A stretch of DNA of 9,359 bases, taken from the IMG/VR virus record IMGVR_UViG_2541047443_000006; one strand, 5' to 3'. The notes under the pieces were generated by a model. That model worked only from the letters and a program-made list of their open reading frames with translations. It had not been told where the DNA came from and ran no database searches. The stretch comes from a virus (Duplodnaviria > Heunggongvirae > Uroviricota > Caudoviricetes). Shown piece by piece: positions 1 through 9,359 of this stretch. Positions within the stretch are counted from its first letter, which is position 1. Each line of letters starts with the position of its first letter. The position numbers were made by a program, and so were the translations under genes.

Positions 1-39
1 CCAGGCATAAGTATCATGTGAAATCCAACTATCCTTCTG

Positions 40-82
40 AGCCAGCACCTCTCCACCGAAAGTCAGTGCTGGCTGTTTTTTT
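40..82 (+). terminator. Rho-independent terminator-like hairpin: perfect 9-bp stem with 17-nt loop, followed by a T7 run
   Basis: Seen in sequence: agccagcac (40-48) is the exact reverse complement of gtgctggct (66-74), followed by g + ttttttt (76-82). No T-run follows the stem on the minus strand, so it is oriented for + strand transcripts. No ORF of 60 aa or more in 1-430. Confidence 0.5.
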
Positions 83-287
83 CCTTAATAAAGCATCTGT
101 AACTGGTTGTTGTTCTGCGGGTTCTGTTCTTCGTTGACATGAGGTTGCCCCGTATTCAGTGTCGCTGATTTGTATTGTCTGAAGTTGTTTTTACGTTAAG
201 TTGATGCGGATCAATTAATACGATACCTGCGTCATAATTGATTATTTGACGTGGTTTGATGGCGTAGATGCACGTTGTGACATGTAG

Positions 288-304
288 ATGATAATTATTA
301 TCAT
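288..304. repeat. 17-bp perfect palindrome atgataat-t-attatcat, about 35-50 bp upstream of cosN; possibly in the cosQ region
   Basis: Seen in sequence: 288-304 is self-complementary around the central t at 296. Assigning it to cosQ is inference from its position relative to cosN; I do not recall exact cosQ coordinates. Confidence 0.4.
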
Positions 305-339
305 TTTGCGGGTCCTTTCCGGCGATCCGACAGGTTACG

Positions 340-351
340 GGGCGGCGACCT
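340..351 (+). other. cosN: cosN cohesive-end sequence GGGCGGCGACCT (12-nt 5' overhang of the lambda-type cos site); top-strand nick predicted between 339 and 340
   Basis: Seen in sequence: caggttacg (331-339) then gggcggcgacct (340-351), which matches the joined right and left termini of phage lambda as I recall them. Supported by the lambda-type terminase genes immediately downstream. Confidence 0.85.
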
Positions 352-387
352 CGCGGTTTTTCACTATTTATGAAAATTTTCCGGTTT

Positions 388-504
388 AAGGCGTTTCCGT
401 TCTTCTTCGCCGTAACCTAATGTTTTTATTTAAAACACCCCCTGAAAAGAAAGGAAACGACAGGTGCTGAAAACGGGCTTTTTGGCCTCTGTCGTTTCCT
501 TTCT
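388..504 (+). promoter_or_regulatory. cosB: cosB terminase small-subunit binding region: R3 (about 388-403), AT-rich putative IHF site I1 (about 411-440), R2 (448-463) and R1 (489-504)
   Basis: Seen in sequence: cgtttcc at 392-398 and 493-499, and its complement ggaaacg at 453-459. R2 and R1 form a perfect 16-bp inverted repeat (agaaaggaaacgacag 448-463 / ctgtcgtttcctttct 489-504). The R3-I1-R2-R1 layout is established for lambda cosB; the IHF site position is approximate. Confidence 0.75.
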
Positions 505-528
505 CTGTTTTTGTCCGTGGAATGAACA

Positions 529-1048
529 ATGGAAGTCAACAAAAAGCAGCTGGCTGACATTTTCGGCGCGAGTATCCGTACCATTCAGAACTGGCAGGAG
601 CAGGGAATGCCCGTTCTGCGGGGTGGTGGCAAGGGTAATGAGGTACTTTATGACTCTGCCGCCGCCATAAAATGGTATGCCGAAAGGGATGCTGAAATTG
701 AGAACGAAAAGCTGCGCCGGGAAGTTGAAGAACTGAGGCAGGACAGCGAGACAGATCTCCAGCCAGGGACTATTGAGTACGAACGCCATCGACTTACGCG
801 TGCGCAGGCCGACGCACAGGAACTGAAGAATGCCAGAGACTCAGCTGAAGTGGTGGAAACCGCATTCTGTACTTTCGTGCTGTCACGGATCGCAGGTGAA
901 ATTGCCAGTATTCTCGACGGGATCCCCCTGTCGGTGCAGCGGCGTTTTCCGGAACTGGAAAACCGACATGTTGATTTCCTGAAACGGGATATCATCAAAG
1001 CCATGAACAAAGCAGCCGCGCTGGATGAACTGATACCGGGGTTGCTGA

Positions 1049-1074
<26 letters not shown>
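529..1074 (+). CDS. nu1: Terminase small subunit gpNu1 (181 aa), with N-terminal winged-HTH DNA-binding domain that recognises the cosB R elements
   Basis: ORF 529..1074; the translation (MEVNKKQLADIFGASIRTIQNWQEQGMPVLRGGGKGNEV...) matches lambda gpNu1 almost residue for residue from memory. Same length as lambda Nu1, positioned directly downstream of cosB. TAA stop at 1072-1074 overlaps the A gene. Confidence 0.95.
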
Positions 1075-4755
<3,681 letters not shown>

Positions 4756-4775
<20 letters not shown>

Positions 4776-6075
4776 TCTCCCGCATATTGCCAGCATGGCT
4801 TTTAATGAGCCGCTGATGCTTGAACCCGCCTATGCGCGGGTTTTCTTTTGTGCGCTTGCAGGCCAGCTTGGGATCAGCCGCCTGACGGATGCAGTATCCG
4901 GCGACAGCCTGACTGCCGGAGAGGCACCCGCGGCGCTGGCGTTATCCGGTGATGATGACGGACCACGACAGGCCCGGAGTTATCAGGTCATGAACGGCAT
5001 CGCCGTGCTGCCGGTGTCCGGTACGCTGGTCAGCCGGACGCGGGCGCTGCAGCCGTATTCGGGAATGACCGGTTACAACGGCATTATCGCCCGTCTGCAA
5101 CAGGCTGCCAGCGATCCGATGGTGGACGGCATTCTGCTCGATATGGACACACCGGGCGGGATGGTGGCGGGAGCATTTGACTGTGCTGACATCATCGCCC
5201 GTGTGCGAGACATAAAACCGGTATGGGCGCTGGCCAACGACATGAACTGCAGTGCAGGTCAGCTGCTTGCCAGCGCCGCCTCCCGGCGTCTGGTCACGCA
5301 GACCGCCCGGACAGGCTCCATCGGCGTCATGATGGCTCACAGTAATTACGGTGCTGCCCTGGAGAAACAGGGCGTGGAAATCACGCTGATTTACAGCGGC
5401 AGCCATAAGGTGGATGGCAACCCCTACAGCCATCTACCGGGTGATGTCCGGGAAACACTGCAGTCCCGGATGGATGCAACCCGCCGGATGTTTGCGCAGA
5501 AGGTGTCGGCATATACCGGCCTGTCCGTGCAGGCTGTGCTGGATACCGAGGCTGCAGTGTACAGCGGTCAGGAGGCCATTGATGCCGGACTGGCTGATGA
5601 ACTTGTCAACAGCACCGATGCGATCACCGTTATGCGTGATGCACTGGATGCACGTAAATCCCGTCTCTCAGGAGGGCGAATGACCAAAGAGACTCAATCA
5701 ACAACTGTTTCAGCCACTGCTTCGCAGGCTGACGTTACTGGCGTGGTGCCAGCGACGGAGGGCGAAAACGCCAGCGCGGCGCAGCCGGACGTGAACGCGC
5801 AGATCACCGCTGCGGTTGCGGCAGAAAACAGCCGCATTATGGGGATCCTCAACTGTGAGGAGGCTCACGGACGCGAAGAACAGGCCCGCGTGCTGGCAGA
5901 AACCCCCGGTATGACCGTGGAAACGGCCCGCCGCATTCTGGCCGCAGCACCACAGAGTGCACAGGCGCGCAGTGATACTGCGCTGGATCGTCTGATGCAG
6001 GGGGCTCCGGCACCGCTGGCTGCAGGTAACCCGGCATCTGATGCCGTTAACGATTTGCTGAACACACCAGTGTAA
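4756..6075 (+). CDS. C: Head maturation protease gpC (439 aa; S49/ClpP-like serine peptidase family), GTG start inside the B 3' end
   Basis: The long ORF 4621..6075 contains gtg at 4756-4758 preceded by gaggaggag (4743-4751), giving MTAELRNLPHIASMAFNEPLMLEP... as in lambda gpC (439 aa). Overlaps B by 20 nt. The upstream part of the ORF track entry (4621-4755) is rejected as a spurious extension. Confidence 0.9.
5470..6075 (+). CDS. nu3: Scaffolding protein gpNu3 (201 aa), translated from an internal in-frame ATG within C, sharing C's C-terminus and stop
   Basis: ATG at 5470-5472 is in frame with C (5470 minus 4756 = 714 = 238 codons); translation begins MDATRRMFAQKV. Coordinates match lambda Nu3 (lambda 5132..5737) at the same offset as neighbouring genes. 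No obvious strong SD is seen upstream. Confidence 0.8.
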   Translation: MDATRRMFAQKVSAYTGLSVQAVLDTEAAVYSGQEAIDAGLADELVNSTDAITVMRDALDARKSRLSGGRMTKETQSTTVSATASQADVTGVVPATEGENASAAQPDVNAQITAAVAAENSRIMGILNCEEAHGREEQARVLAETPGMTVETARRILAAAPQSAQARSDTALDRLMQGAPAPLAAGNPASDAVNDLLNTPV

Positions 6076-6084
6076 GGGATGTTT

Positions 6085-6417
6085 ATGACGAGCAAAGAAA
6101 CCTTTACCCATTACCAGCCGCTGGGCAACAGTGACCCGGCTCATACCGCAACCGCGCCCGGCGGATTGAGTGCGAAAGCGCCTGCAATGACCCCGCTGAT
6201 GCTGGACACCTCCAGCCGTAAGCTGGTTGCGTGGGATGGCACCACCGACGGTGCTGCCGTTGGCATTCTTGCGGTTGCTGCTGACCAGACCAGCACCACG
6301 CTGACGTTCTACAAGTCCGGCACGTTCCGTTATGAGGATGTGCTCTGGCCGGAGGCTGCCAGCGACGAGACGAAAAAACGGACCGCGTTTGCCGGAACGG
6401 CAATCAGCATCGTTTAA
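6085..6417 (+). CDS. D: Head decoration protein gpD (110 aa)
   Basis: ORF 6079..6417 in the track; the second in-frame ATG at 6085 gives [12 protein letters not shown]... as in lambda gpD (110 aa), with aaggga (6074-6079) 5 nt upstream. TAA stop at 6415-6417. Confidence 0.92.
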
Positions 6418-6437
6418 CCTGACCCTTCATCACTAAA

Positions 6438-6459
6438 GGCCGCCTGTGCGGCTTTTTTT
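6438..6459 (+). terminator. D-E intergenic hairpin: GC stem gccgc / gcggc with ctgt loop, followed by a T7 run; terminator-like or attenuator-like
   Basis: Seen in sequence: gccgc (6439-6443), loop ctgt (6444-6447), gcggc (6448-6452), then ttttttt (6453-6459). Lies between the D stop (6417) and the E start (6473). Confidence 0.45.
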
Positions 6460-6472
6460 ACGGGATTTTTTT

Positions 6473-7498
6473 ATGTCGATGTACACAACCGCCCAACTGC
6501 TGGCGGCAAATGAGCAGAAATTTAAGTTTGATCCGCTGTTTCTGCGTCTCTTTTTCCGTGAGAGCTATCCCTTCACCACGGAGAAAGTCTATCTCTCACA
6601 AATTCCGGGACTGGTAAACATGGCGCTGTACGTTTCGCCGATTGTTTCTGGTGAGGTTATCCGTTCCCGTGGCGGCTCCACCTCTGAATTTACGCCGGGA
6701 TATGTCAAGCCGAAGCATGAAGTGAATCCGCAGATGACCCTGCGTCGCCTGCCGGATGAAGATCCGCAGAATCTGGCGGACCCGGCTTACCGCCGCCGTC
6801 GCATCATCATGCAGAACATGCGTGACGAAGAGCTGGCCATTGCTCAGGTCGAAGAGATGCAGGCAGTTTCTGCCGTGCTCAAGGGCAAATACACCATGAC
6901 CGGTGAAGCCTTCGATCCGGTTGAGGTGGATATGGGCCGCAGTGCGGCGAACAACATCACGCAGTCCGGCGGCACGGAGTGGAGCAAGCGTGACAAGTCC
7001 ACGTATGACCCGACCGACGATATCGAAGCCTACGCGCTGAACGCCAGCGGCGTGGTGAATATCATCGTGTTTGACCCGAAAGGCTGGGCGCTGTTCCGTT
7101 CCTTCAAAGCCGTCAGGGAGAAGCTGGATACCCGTCGCGGCTCTCATTCCGAACTGGAGACAGCGGTAAAAGACCTGGGCAAAGCGGTGTCTTATAAGGG
7201 AATGTATGGCGATGTGGCCATCGTCGTGTATTCCGGACAGTACGTGGAAAACGGCGTCAAAAAGAACTTCCTGCCGGACAACACGATGGTGCTGGGGAAC
7301 ACTCAGGCACGCGGTCTGCGCACCTATGGCTGCATTCAGGATGCGGACGCACAGCGCGAAGGCATTAACGCCTCTGCCCGTTACCCGAAAAACTGGGTGA
7401 CCACCGGCGATCCGGCGCGTGAGTTCACCATGATTCAGTCAGCACCGCTGATGCTGCTGGCTGACCCTGATGAGTTCGTGTCCGTACAACTGGCGTAA
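6473..7498 (+). CDS. E: Major capsid protein gpE (341 aa)
   Basis: Track ORF 6446..7498; the ATG at 6473 gives MSMYTTAQLLAANEQKFKFDPLFLRLFFRESYPF..., matching lambda gpE (341 aa). The upstream M at 6446 would read through the D-E hairpin and is rejected. Confidence 0.95.
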   Translation: MSMYTTAQLLAANEQKFKFDPLFLRLFFRESYPFTTEKVYLSQIPGLVNMALYVSPIVSGEVIRSRGGSTSEFTPGYVKPKHEVNPQMTLRRLPDEDPQNLADPAYRRRRIIMQNMRDEELAIAQVEEMQAVSAVLKGKYTMTGEAFDPVEVDMGRSAANNITQSGGTEWSKRDKSTYDPTDDIEAYALNASGVVNIIVFDPKGWALFRSFKAVREKLDTRRGSHSELETAVKDLGKAVSYKGMYGDVAIVVYSGQYVENGVKKNFLPDNTMVLGNTQARGLRTYGCIQDADAQREGINASARYPKNWVTTGDPAREFTMIQSAPLMLLADPDEFVSVQLA

Positions 7499-7500
7499 TC

Positions 7501-7525
7501 ATGGCCCTTCGGGGCCATTGTTTTT
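7501..7525 (+). terminator. E-FI intergenic hairpin: perfect 7-bp stem with a UUCG tetraloop, followed by tgttttt
   Basis: Seen in sequence: atggccc (7501-7507), ttcg (7508-7511), gggccat (7512-7518), then tgttttt (7519-7525). Starts 3 nt after the E stop codon. Confidence 0.5.
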
Positions 7526-7539
7526 CTGTGGAGGAGTCC

Positions 7540-7938
7540 ATGACGAAAGATGAACTGATTGCCCGTCTCCGCTCGCTGGGTGAACAACTGAACCGTGATG
7601 TCAGCCTGACGGGGACGAAAGAAGAACTGGCGCTCCGTGTGGCAGAGCTGGAAGAGGAGCTTGATGACACGGATGAAACTGCCGGTCAGGACACCCCTCT
7701 CAGCCGGGAAAATGTGCTGACCGGACATGAAAATGAGGTGGGATCAGCGCAGCCGGATACCGTGATTCTGGATACGTCTGAACTGGTCACGGTCGTGGCA
7801 CTGGTGAAGCTGCATACTGATGCACTTCACGTCACGCGGGATGAACCTGTGGCATTTGTGCTGCCGGGAACGGCGTTTCGTGTCTCTGCCGGTGTGGCAG
7901 CCGAAATGACAGAGCGCGGCCTGGCCAGAATGCAATAA
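7540..7938 (+). CDS. FI: DNA packaging / head assembly accessory protein gpFI (132 aa)
   Basis: Track ORF 7501..7938; the ATG at 7540 preceded by ggaggag (7531-7537) gives MTKDELIARLRSLGEQLNRDV..., matching lambda gpFI. The extension back to 7501 would read through the hairpin and is rejected. Confidence 0.92.
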   Translation: MTKDELIARLRSLGEQLNRDVSLTGTKEELALRVAELEEELDDTDETAGQDTPLSRENVLTGHENEVGSAQPDTVILDTSELVTVVALVKLHTDALHVTRDEPVAFVLPGTAFRVSAGVAAEMTERGLARMQ

Positions 7939-7949
7939 CGGGAGGCGCT

Positions 7950-8303
7950 GTGGCTGATTTCGATAACCTGTTCGATGCTGCCATTGCCCGCGCCGATGAA
8001 ACGATACGCGGGTACATGGGAACGTCAGCCACCATGACATCCGGTGAGCGGTCCGGCGCAGTAATACGTGGTGTTTTTGATGACCCTGAAAATATCAGCT
8101 ATGCCGGACAGGGCGTGCGCGTTGAAGGCTCCAGCCCGTCCCTGTTTGTCCGGACTGATGATGTGCGGCAACTGCGGCGTGGTGACACGCTGACCATTAA
8201 CGGCGAGATGTTCTGGGTGGACCGTGTTTCTCCGGATGACGGAGGGAGTTGTTATCTCTGGCTCAACCGTGGGCAACCACCGGCAGTTAACCGGCGACGA
8301 TAA
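7950..8303 (+). CDS. FII: Head-tail connector / head completion protein gpFII (117 aa), GTG start
   Basis: ORF 7950..8303 with gtg at 7950-7952 preceded by gggagg (7940-7945); translation MADFDNLFDAAIARADETIRGYMGTSAT... matches lambda gpFII (117 aa). The C-terminal third appears more diverged from lambda than the N-terminus (from memory). Confidence 0.9.
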   Translation: MADFDNLFDAAIARADETIRGYMGTSATMTSGERSGAVIRGVFDDPENISYAGQGVRVEGSSPSLFVRTDDVRQLRRGDTLTINGEMFWVDRVSPDDGGSCYLWLNRGQPPAVNRRR

Positions 8304-8317
8304 ACGCAGGGTGAATT

Positions 8318-8851
8318 ATGGCGATAAAAGGGCTTGATCAGGCGATTGAAAATCTGAGCCGGGTTCGTAAAAACGCCATTCCGGCGGCTTCAGCAATGGC
8401 CATTAACCGCGTGGCCACAACGGCGATTAATCAGTCTTCATCACAGGTTGCCCGGGAGACAAAGGTACGCCGGAAACTGGTAAAGGAACGGTCCAGACTG
8501 AAACGGGCCACGGTCAGAAATCCGAATGCCAGAATTATCGTTAAACGCGGTGATCTCCCTGTGATTAAGCTGGGGATCAGGATGCTGGGCCGTCGTCCGG
8601 ACAGCATACTTAAAGCTGGTCAGCATCGGTATCAGCGGGCATTTATCCAGCGATTAAAAAATGGTCGCTGGCATGTCATGCAGCGTGTGGCCGGGAAAAA
8701 CCGTTACCCCATTGATGTGGTGAAAATCCCGATGGCGGCCCCACTGAAACAGGCGTTTGATGAGAATATTGACCGTATCCGGCGTGAACGTCTGCCCGGA
8801 GAACTGGCATACGCGCTGAAACAACAACTTAGGATTGCGATAAAACGATGA
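8318..8851 (+). CDS. Z: Tail completion protein gpZ homolog (177 aa), a diverged allele relative to lambda gpZ
   Basis: ORF 8318..8851 in the position of lambda Z; the N-terminus (MAIKGL...) and C-terminal half (...RLKNGRWHVMQRVAGKNRYPIDVVKIPMA...) resemble lambda gpZ, but the protein is 177 aa against 192 aa as I recall for lambda. ATGA overlap with U at 8848-8851. Confidence 0.85.
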   Translation: MAIKGLDQAIENLSRVRKNAIPAASAMAINRVATTAINQSSSQVARETKVRRKLVKERSRLKRATVRNPNARIIVKRGDLPVIKLGIRMLGRRPDSILKAGQHRYQRAFIQRLKNGRWHVMQRVAGKNRYPIDVVKIPMAAPLKQAFDENIDRIRRERLPGELAYALKQQLRIAIKR

Positions 8852-9243
8852 AACATACTGATATCCGTGCGGCAGTGCTGGATGCACTGGAGCTGCATGA
8901 ACACGGGGCGACGCTGTTTGATGGTCGCCCCGTTGTTTTTGACGAAGAGGATTTTCCGGCCGTCGCGGTTTATCTGACGGATGCAGAGTATACCGGTGAA
9001 GAGCTGGATGCAGATACCTGGCGGGCCACACTGCATATTGAGGTGTTTTTACCGGCACAGGTACCGGATTCGGAGCTTGATCAGTGGATGGAAAGCCGGA
9101 TTTATCCGGCGGTGACTGCGATCCCGGCACTGGCAGACCTGATTACGACGATGGTTACGCAGGGCTATGAGTATCGTCGTGATGACGATATGGCGTTATG
9201 GAGTTCTGCGGATCTGACTTATTCCATTACATACGAGATGTGA
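8848..9243 (+). CDS. U: Tail terminator protein gpU (131 aa)
   Basis: ORF 8848..9243; 131 aa as in lambda gpU, with recognisable but not identical sequence ([15 protein letters not shown]...[10 protein letters not shown]). Confidence 0.88.
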
Positions 9244-9250
9244 GGACGAT

Positions 9251-9359
9251 ATGGCAACACCAAATCCCCTTGAGCCGGTAAAAGGTGCCGGTACCACTCT
9301 GTGGGTTTACAACGGCAAGGGTGATGCTTATGCAAACCCGTTGTCAGACGATGACTGGC
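9251..9359 (+). CDS. V: Major tail tube protein gpV, 5' partial (first 36 codons; runs off the window end)
   Basis: ATG at 9251-9253 preceded by gagga (9242-9246); translation [36 protein letters not shown] resembles the lambda gpV N-terminus ([10 protein letters not shown] core). The position after U matches lambda gene order. Not in the ORF track because no stop falls inside the window. Confidence 0.8.

Follow-up and report, generated by a model that had tools for sequence, protein, structure and literature searches.

A recombination joint within the head-tail joining gene

Where does the head module of a lambda-like phage end when the tail genes beside it come from another lineage, and how were the two joined? 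The question is raised by IMG/VR virus record IMGVR_UViG_2541047443_000006, a stretch of 9,359 nucleotides (referred to here as the window; position 1 is its first letter) that is the left arm of a lambda-like prophage or phage. A preliminary description had placed a breakpoint within or just after FII, the gene for the head-tail joining protein (7950-8303; like all genes, segments and insertions given here, on the plus strand). The recombination joint was confirmed to be real, statistically unambiguous, and intragenic: FII, encoding 117 residues, is a natural chimera in which codons 1 to 74 are of the lambda type, while codons ~78 to 117 represent the allele that every sampled FII gene of the phage 21 type (21-type) carries. 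Very probably, two diverged lambdoid lineages underwent homologous recombination to give this late operon, a lambda-type head module becoming joined to the FII 3' end, Z, U, and V of a 21-type-headed parent of the PhiR12_1 type.

The lambda reference used was PV340536.1 (locus L001; further loci are likewise given L numbers), with a window position equal to the L001 coordinate minus 1396. By megablast against 50,697 phage records, the window matched lambda and many lambda-like Escherichia phages at 95 to 97% over 105-9359. Global alignment with lambda gave a DNA identity of 97.8% over 105-8000, where 100-base bins lay mostly at 96 to 100%, with a few patches at 92 to 95%. Identity was 94% over 8001-8200 and 69 to 84% in each bin from 8201 to the end, amounting to 73% over 8201-9359. 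At the protein level, Nu1 through FI were 97.8 to 99.1% identical to lambda, FII 92.3% (108 of 117 residues, with six of the nine changes lying after residue 83), Z 69.3%, and U 80.9%; the corresponding DNA identities were 71% for Z, 77% for U, and 74% for the start of V. The maximum chi-square breakpoint against lambda fell at 8198, with a value of 1013 compared to no more than 23.9 in 500 permutations (Fisher p = 4e-141); DNA identity was 97.8% over 105-8197 and 73% from 8198 on.

These values agree with much of the preliminary description. Its head genes are indeed near-identical to those of lambda, but not identical, as its heading had put it, and the substitutions it reported in U and the V N terminus are evident. 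The end of FII also differs from lambda as reported, but the differences are not scattered, since 8201-8303 has only 72% DNA identity. The identity scan across the junction, which had been proposed as a check, gave a drop at 8198 and no uniform identity.

The position of the joint was read from an alignment, from FII to the start of V, of the window, lambda, 2B8, a Stx1a phage, PhiR12_1, PhiR5_1, and phage 21. Up to 8172 the window is of the lambda type, and ~43% of positions differ from PhiR12_1, PhiR5_1, and phage 21. From 8173 on, those three are near-identical to the window, and from 8198 on it is lambda, 2B8, and the Stx1 phage that depart from it. The 25 bases between (TGCGGCGTGGTGACACGCTGACCAT, 8173-8197, FII codons 75-83, LRRGDTLTI) form a crossover patch common to all lineages, and the identity changes across these ~25 bases as a step, with no gradient. 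The joint is in frame, 120 bases before the FII stop codon, and the FII reading frame is intact at 117 residues despite the chimera. Six differences from lambda at 8036-8063 were considered as an earlier start of the joint and rejected: at five of them 2B8 and the Stx1 phage have the same base as the window, leaving lambda as the outlier, and the sixth, at 8050, is private to the window class.

Relatives were surveyed by taking the best 80 IMG/VR loci for the window FII and the best 80 for the phage 21 FII, and 148 sequences were typed block by block. Over 7950-8172, FII was lambda-type in 79 of these and 21-type in 69. Within the patch, 20 of 25 positions were invariant across both head types. 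The final lambda-type-specific base is at 8172 (C versus G), and 8183 is T in all 69 21-type sequences and otherwise only in the window and L011 to L016; the 70 lambda-type sequences that stay lambda-like all have A or C there. The exchange seen in the window therefore took place within 8173-8182, in FII codons 75 to 78. Loci L017 and L018 have A at 8183 followed by window-type sequence, which represents a second exchange in this patch, at 8184-8197. Of the two placements offered by the preliminary description, the one within FII thus stands, and the one just after FII, at the FII-Z border, does not.

Origin of the two flanks

The joint separates a lambda-type segment at 105-8172, which comprises the sequence left of cos, cosN, nu1, A, W, B, C/Nu3, D, E, FI, and FII codons 1 to 74 (97.8% nucleotide identity to lambda), from a tail-proximal segment of the PhiR12_1 type at 8183-9359, with the FII 3' end, Z, U, and V codons 1 to 36 (96.1% identity to PhiR12_1). 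The left flank matches lambda-type heads in 2B8, Stx1 phages, and the Escherichia coli O157:H7 prophage next to icd, and in 2B8 and the Stx1 phages it occurs with lambda-type tails. For the right flank, megablast of 8200-9359 returned the ECOR-derived phages PhiR12_1/2/4/5 at 96.3% and PhiR5_1 at 95.6%, ahead of lambda-like phages at ~79%. Over 8198-9359, identity was 96.1% to PhiR12_1 and 95.1 to 95.2% to L165, L166, and L170, all of which carry 21-type heads.

The two named relatives, PhiR12_1 (PV340549.1) and PhiR5_1 (PV340545.1), resemble the window at 95.6 to 96.3% in the FII 3' end, the 177-residue Z, U, and the start of V. They differ in their packaging and head module, which is 21-type (Nu1 510 to 549 nucleotides, B 1593, C 1506), and the 5' two thirds of their FII is only 57% identical to that of the window. 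PhiR12_1-type phages with 21-type heads thus carry, at 95 to 96%, the Z-U-V alleles whose source the preliminary description had left to be found, and are the probable kind of donor. That description had rightly called the arrangement typical lambdoid mosaicism, and both flanks do have closer relatives in other combinations.

The survey bears out this assignment. All 69 of the 21-type FII genes were window-like over 8198-8270 (at least 90% identical to the window and at most 75% to lambda), compared to nine of the 79 lambda-type genes (the window and L011 to L018), the other 70 being lambda-like there. Window-type Z, U, and V were likewise found mostly behind 21-type heads. Upstream, the type of the FII 5' part was fully linked to the types of E and FI, with 76 loci lambda-type in all three, 64 loci 21-type in all three, and none mixed.

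Probable homologous recombination at a shared patch

One parent would have contributed lambda-type packaging and head genes, beginning with nu1 and ending at FII codon ~75. The other would have had a 21-type head and PhiR12_1-type tail genes and have given FII codons ~78 to 117, the 177-residue Z, U, and V. The exchange would have occurred inside the FII stretch of 25 bases that is near-identical in both lineages, narrowed to 8173-8182, and may have been the work of RecA or of Rad52-like phage recombinases, with co-resident prophages or infecting phages as partners. Relaxed homologous recombination between diverged lambdoid sequences tolerates divergence and was shown by experiment to need Rad52-like recombinases and RecA (De Paepe et al. 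2014, PMC3945230), and exchanges of ~100 bp within genes were seen in experimental lambda-prophage crosses (PMC3945230). Head genes and tail genes of lambdoid phages behave as separate co-transferred modules (PMC9836094).

The joint has the marks of a homologous exchange: a step in identity, flanks that occur with other partners, a shared patch at the step, and reading frames that were kept under purifying selection. Lambda-type and 21-type late operons are ~57% identical to the left of 8173 and 70 to 80% identical, with frequent short conserved runs, beyond the patch. The right edge of the head module lies in FII in every sampled relative because the patch is the first pairable match encountered when moving rightward, and the positions of joints farther downstream are many because the allele families there are 70 to 80% identical with short conserved runs. 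No Chi site (GCTGGTGG) is present in the whole window on either strand, so that the signature of a Chi-stimulated RecBCD exchange is missing from it.

A joint such as this could also come from illegitimate (non-homologous) recombination close to or at a gene border, with selection acting afterwards, an origin proposed for many mosaic joints of phages. It is reportedly the classical model, associated with Juhala et al. in 2000 and with Hendrix et al., for sharp mosaic joints between unrelated sequences. The joint of the window is not of that kind, however. It lies 120 bases inside FII, in frame, within the shared 25-base stretch, and the flanks on both sides are homologous throughout between the parental types. 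A gene-border joint was accordingly rejected, the exchange having occurred at FII codons 75 to 78 inside the patch, and an illegitimate origin is regarded as very improbable.

The divergence of the FII 3' end, Z, U, and V might also have arisen with no recombination at all, by faster change, as in a defective prophage where selection is relaxed. Among complete genomes, the closest relatives are prophages of O157:H7, a background with many defective prophages (PMC2669165), and in two of these relatives, those of strains Gim1-1 and TR01, the downstream annotation gives a truncated tail assembly gene T. Synonymous divergence (dS) from lambda was 0 to 0.17 from nu1 through FII codon 75 and rose to 1.47 for FII codons 76 to 117, 0.78 for Z, 1.12 for U, and 0.87 for V, while the ratio of nonsynonymous to synonymous divergence on the diverged side was only 0.09 to 0.22, and its reading frames are intact. 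The jump in dS together with the low ratio therefore indicates old functional alleles under purifying selection and not prophage decay. The step within ~25 bases, with no gradient, is equally at odds with faster divergence, and the presence of the same allele, at 95 to 96%, on a different head module in plaque-forming phages refutes it; its probability is put close to zero.

Several points weigh against the recombination of a lambda-type head with the tail genes of a 21-type-headed parent, or limit what can be said of it. The survey contains many near-clonal E. coli prophages, and its counts do not equal independent events. The exact Z protein was found with E, D, FI, and C genes of lambda-type length in all 10 contexts listed from 44 contigs, and a 21-type-headed parent carrying this exact allele was absent from those contexts. 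The best tail-side parent found is only 96.1% identical to the window. A recent exchange is compatible with these last two points only if the actual donor is missing from the sample. The enzymology given above and the direction of transfer are inferred, the latter from the majority pattern only. With these points taken into account, homologous recombination between the two lineages is still held to be very probable.

Architecture of the chimeric FII protein

FII matched Pfam PF05354 (E = 9.4e-21, 74.7 bits against a cutoff of 26, profile positions 4 to 96 of 99) and aligned over residues 1 to 117 with PDB 1K0H (E = 5.5e-70). In the lambda virion, the N-terminal helix of gpFII (residues 4 to 24) seats on gpW, the hairpin (46 to 62) and the C-terminal loop (108 to 117) bind the O-loop of gpU, and residues 63 to 107 are part of a beta-sandwich (PMC10721106). 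The joint at residues 75 to 78 thus falls within the beta-sandwich, with one gpU-binding element on either side of it.

These contacts invite the explanation that selection has kept the joint at a boundary between functional domains. Residues 1 to 75 of FII would have to match the head (gpW and the portal) and residues 76 to 117 the tail (gpU and gpZ), so that only chimeras cut here would be viable and the patch would be a selected linker. Binding of gpW by helix 4-24 and contact of loop 108-117 with the gpU O-loop fit this (PMC10721106), as do the perfect linkage of the FII 5' type to the E/FI type in 140 loci and the occurrence of at least two separate exchanges within the same 25-base patch. 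The linkage upstream is, however, more simply due to the 57% nucleotide identity there, which leaves nothing to pair. Moreover, hairpin 46-62, which also binds gpU, is on the head side; its sequence is not the same in lambda-type and 21-type proteins, and yet each type is found with both U alleles. Co-adaptation of the FII C terminus with U was also considered and rejected, since each of the two FII C-terminal types occurs with each of the two U types. Because the joint lies inside the sandwich, not between domains, and FII and U pair freely, the idea of a domain boundary or selected linker is given low weight and considered quite unlikely.

A related proposal, which we rate as unlikely as well, is that FII is a two-part adaptor, with the first 75 residues locked to the head lineage and the last 42 freely exchangeable. 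The 25-base patch at codons 75 to 83 would then be the universal right border of lambda-type and 21-type head modules, a conserved recombination linker kept partly because it makes the re-pairing of modules possible. Conserved recombination linkers of this kind are postulated by the modular theory of phage evolution.

The Z, U, and V alleles

The spacer between FII and Z contains, relative to lambda, an insertion of three nucleotides (AAT) at 8314-8316 in the alignments, which shifts the Z start by +3 and accounts for the late start of Z that had been noted earlier. The insertion is shared with PhiR12_1 and PhiR5_1, which add one A just before it, and is absent in lambda, phage 21, 2B8, and the Stx1 phage. 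Z itself (8318-8851), the tail completion protein, lies between FII and U and matched Pfam PF06763 over profile positions 1 to 190 of 190 (E = 2.2e-58). It is a short allele of 177 residues compared to 192 in lambda; the internal 15-codon difference of the preliminary description resolves into two in-frame gaps, one of 10 codons after ~8586 and one of 5 codons after ~8599, both in a basic, variable stretch. The PDB contains no solved structure of gpZ, and the protein is unresolved in lambda virion maps; the 15-residue difference is therefore not placeable structurally.

Among the 148 sequences, Z was most often 579 nucleotides long (n = 93), followed by 576 (n = 30) and 534 (n = 19). The 534-nucleotide form, that of the window, was found behind both head types, and the plaque-forming phages with the short Z are PhiR12_1, PhiR5_1, and 2B8. 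The 576-nucleotide form, carried by L138 to L160 and their relatives (30 of 148 sequences), occurs mostly behind 21-type heads, and its 3' half (equivalent to window 8601-8847) is 71 to 75% identical to the window. As this allele is distinct, Z has at least three allele families.

U (8848-9243), the tail terminator of 131 residues, is likewise a non-lambda allele and matched Pfam PF06141 over profile positions 1 to 130 of 130 (E = 1.6e-60). V (9251-9359), the major tail protein, is cut by the window end after its first 36 codons, and its match to Pfam PF16461 was weak and below the cutoff owing to the short fragment; in identical contexts the full V has 250 residues.

Other joints in related phages

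Painting of 75 loci with 286 sites diagnostic between the window and lambda revealed further joints downstream of the one at 8173-8197 that defines the window class. These lie at 8246-8253 in four loci (L019, L020, L022, and L023), at 8270-8282 in phage 21, and in the middle of Z in three (L039, L063, and L069). Another lies in U, at ~9128, where Stx1a-converting phages (Stx1_9793, locus L002, together with L042 and L065) switch from lambda-type to window-type: they are lambda-like through FII, Z, and most of U, to ~9127, and then 98% identical to the window over 9128-9359. The Stx1a phages share the 3' end of U and the start of V with the window through a different joint.

Phage 21 (OL657228.1) is itself instructive, as its FII (see L006 8023-8130, equivalent to window 8173-8282) is a three-part mosaic, 21-type to 8172, window-type over 8173-8270, and lambda-type from ~8282. 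It has the FII allele of the window almost exactly over 8173-8270, and its divergence from the lambda type also ends at 8172. It differs from the window in its 21-type head and FII 5' part and in its Z (192 residues), U, and V, which are lambda-like after ~8270-8282.

The head side of the joint is thus a sharp, shared boundary, and the tail side is a patchwork with lineage-specific joints. The tail-side patchwork means that there is not one fixed boundary of head and tail-completion modules; the specific boundary named in the preliminary description is borne out on the head side only.

Occurrence in E. coli O157:H7 prophages

A total of 299 complete E. coli replicon records contained the region 7400-9359, which spans the joint, at an identity of at least 99%. 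Matches of 100% came from many O157:H7 genomes, and all of the 100% matches listed were O157:H7 or close kin; IMG/VR contigs L011 to L014 have the identical joint as well. These records bear on the possibility that the joint is an assembly chimera of two co-resident lambdoid prophages. O157:H7 genomes contain five to nine places matching this 2-kb query, a repeat that could confuse an assembler, but such an artifact is hardly credible given that 299 complete-genome records, produced in many laboratories on many platforms, and independent IMG/VR contigs all have an identical joint.

Over 105-9359, the window differs from the icd-adjacent prophage of O157:H7 strain Gim1-1 by 19 substitutions in the head region (99.8% identity). 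In RefSeq, the O157:H7 proteins are annotated as WP_000753016.1 (FII), WP_000975020.1 (Z), and WP_000683063.1 (U). In strain TR01 (L005), the same lambda-type head-tail block is part of a prophage with paa, nleA, nleH1-2, and nleF, at the Sp9 position. The head module of Sp9 in strain Sakai (L009) is another one, in which the prohead-protease gene is fused and 1938 nucleotides long and the large terminase gene has 1662 nucleotides. TR01 and Sakai differ here by replacement of a whole module between strains, a further sign of block exchange among co-resident prophages, which has been discussed for O157 by Asadulghani et al. (PMC2669165). The TR01 context had also suggested Sp9/CP-933P as the source prophage; this was rejected, as the Sakai Sp9 head differs and the whole window is closest to the Gim1-1 icd prophage.

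The truncated T annotations (L010 25368-25670 and L005 23067-23369) lack the C terminus, and T is intact, at 137 residues, in L171 to L175, which have the identical Z as well. Tail defects are probable in some copies of this prophage.

The head genes and the left end of the window

The open reading frames follow the late-operon gene order of lambda throughout, from nu1 to FII and then Z-U-V. Upstream of FII, the genes are nu1 (529-1074), A (1049-2974), W (2971-3177), B (3174-4775), C/Nu3 (4756-6075), D (6085-6417), E (6473-7498), and FI (7540-7938), and from nu1 to FII both gene lengths and spacing are exactly as in lambda, in agreement with the preliminary description. The offset of 338 that it gave relative to reference lambda numbering depends on a nu1 position of 191. 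Within the lambda-type head block, short dips to 92 to 94% identity were observed at 1401-1500, 4901-5000, and 7101-7200, and dS was uneven, being highest for W (0.17) and 0 for D and FI. The dips and the uneven dS would be consistent with a fine-scale patchwork produced by small gene-conversion tracts.

To the left, cosN (GGGCGGCGACCT) lies at 340-351. Positions 1-104 had no match in lambda, the phage collection, or 5,426 complete E. coli genomes by megablast, the first match starting at 105. This segment contains a 9-bp inverted repeat (AGCCAGCAC at 40-48 and GTGCTGGCT at 66-74) with a run of seven T at 76-82, which together look like an intrinsic terminator. The exact hairpin was found in 84 IMG/VR prophage contigs, of which 79 align to the window from position 1 or 9 to 105; because they align only to ~105, a sharp mosaic joint is placed at 104/105. 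Scans of species-representative genomes for the exact pattern found no source of 1-104. Five IMG/VR contigs (L191, L216, L217, L248, and L258) are contiguous with window 1-384 at 99% and then diverge, which suggests another mosaic joint at ~384, between cosN and the cosB/nu1 region.

Relation to known mosaics and significance

Compared with the lambda late operon (PV340536.1; gpFII structures 1K0H and 8K37), the window has the same order, lengths, and spacing from nu1 to FII and the same Pfam families for FII, Z, and U, but departs from it in DNA from FII codon ~78 on. The O157:H7 prophages (Gim1-1 at icd and TR01 at the Sp9 position) share the block and lack, by megablast in complete E. coli genomes, a match to window 1-104. 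The mosaics of De Paepe et al. (PMC3945230) likewise arose by exchange at short shared stretches, including inside genes; they differ in coming from laboratory crosses with selected markers in the lysis, terminase, and side-tail-fibre regions, whereas the window records an old event that took place in nature, within FII.

Events of this kind are fully known, and the present one is textbook lambdoid mosaicism in sequences already public and annotated in hundreds of genomes. The heteroduplex maps of about 1970 already showed that lambdoid phages swap head and tail blocks. For the FII-internal joint itself, no relevant paper was found in a search that did not reach the older papers on phage 21 head genes. 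With the enzymology and the co-transfer of modules already documented (PMC3945230, PMC9836094), the finding matters little beyond bookkeeping. It has three modest practical consequences. Because the right edge of the head module lies inside FII, at ~codon 75, prophage annotation or typing carried out gene by gene will misassign FII. The chimeric FII, the 177-residue Z, and the mixed pairings of FII and U show which combinations of neck proteins nature tolerates, which is useful for the construction of hybrid lambda particles. Finally, the same head-tail block in different O157:H7 prophages illustrates the continuing exchange of parts in this pathogen.

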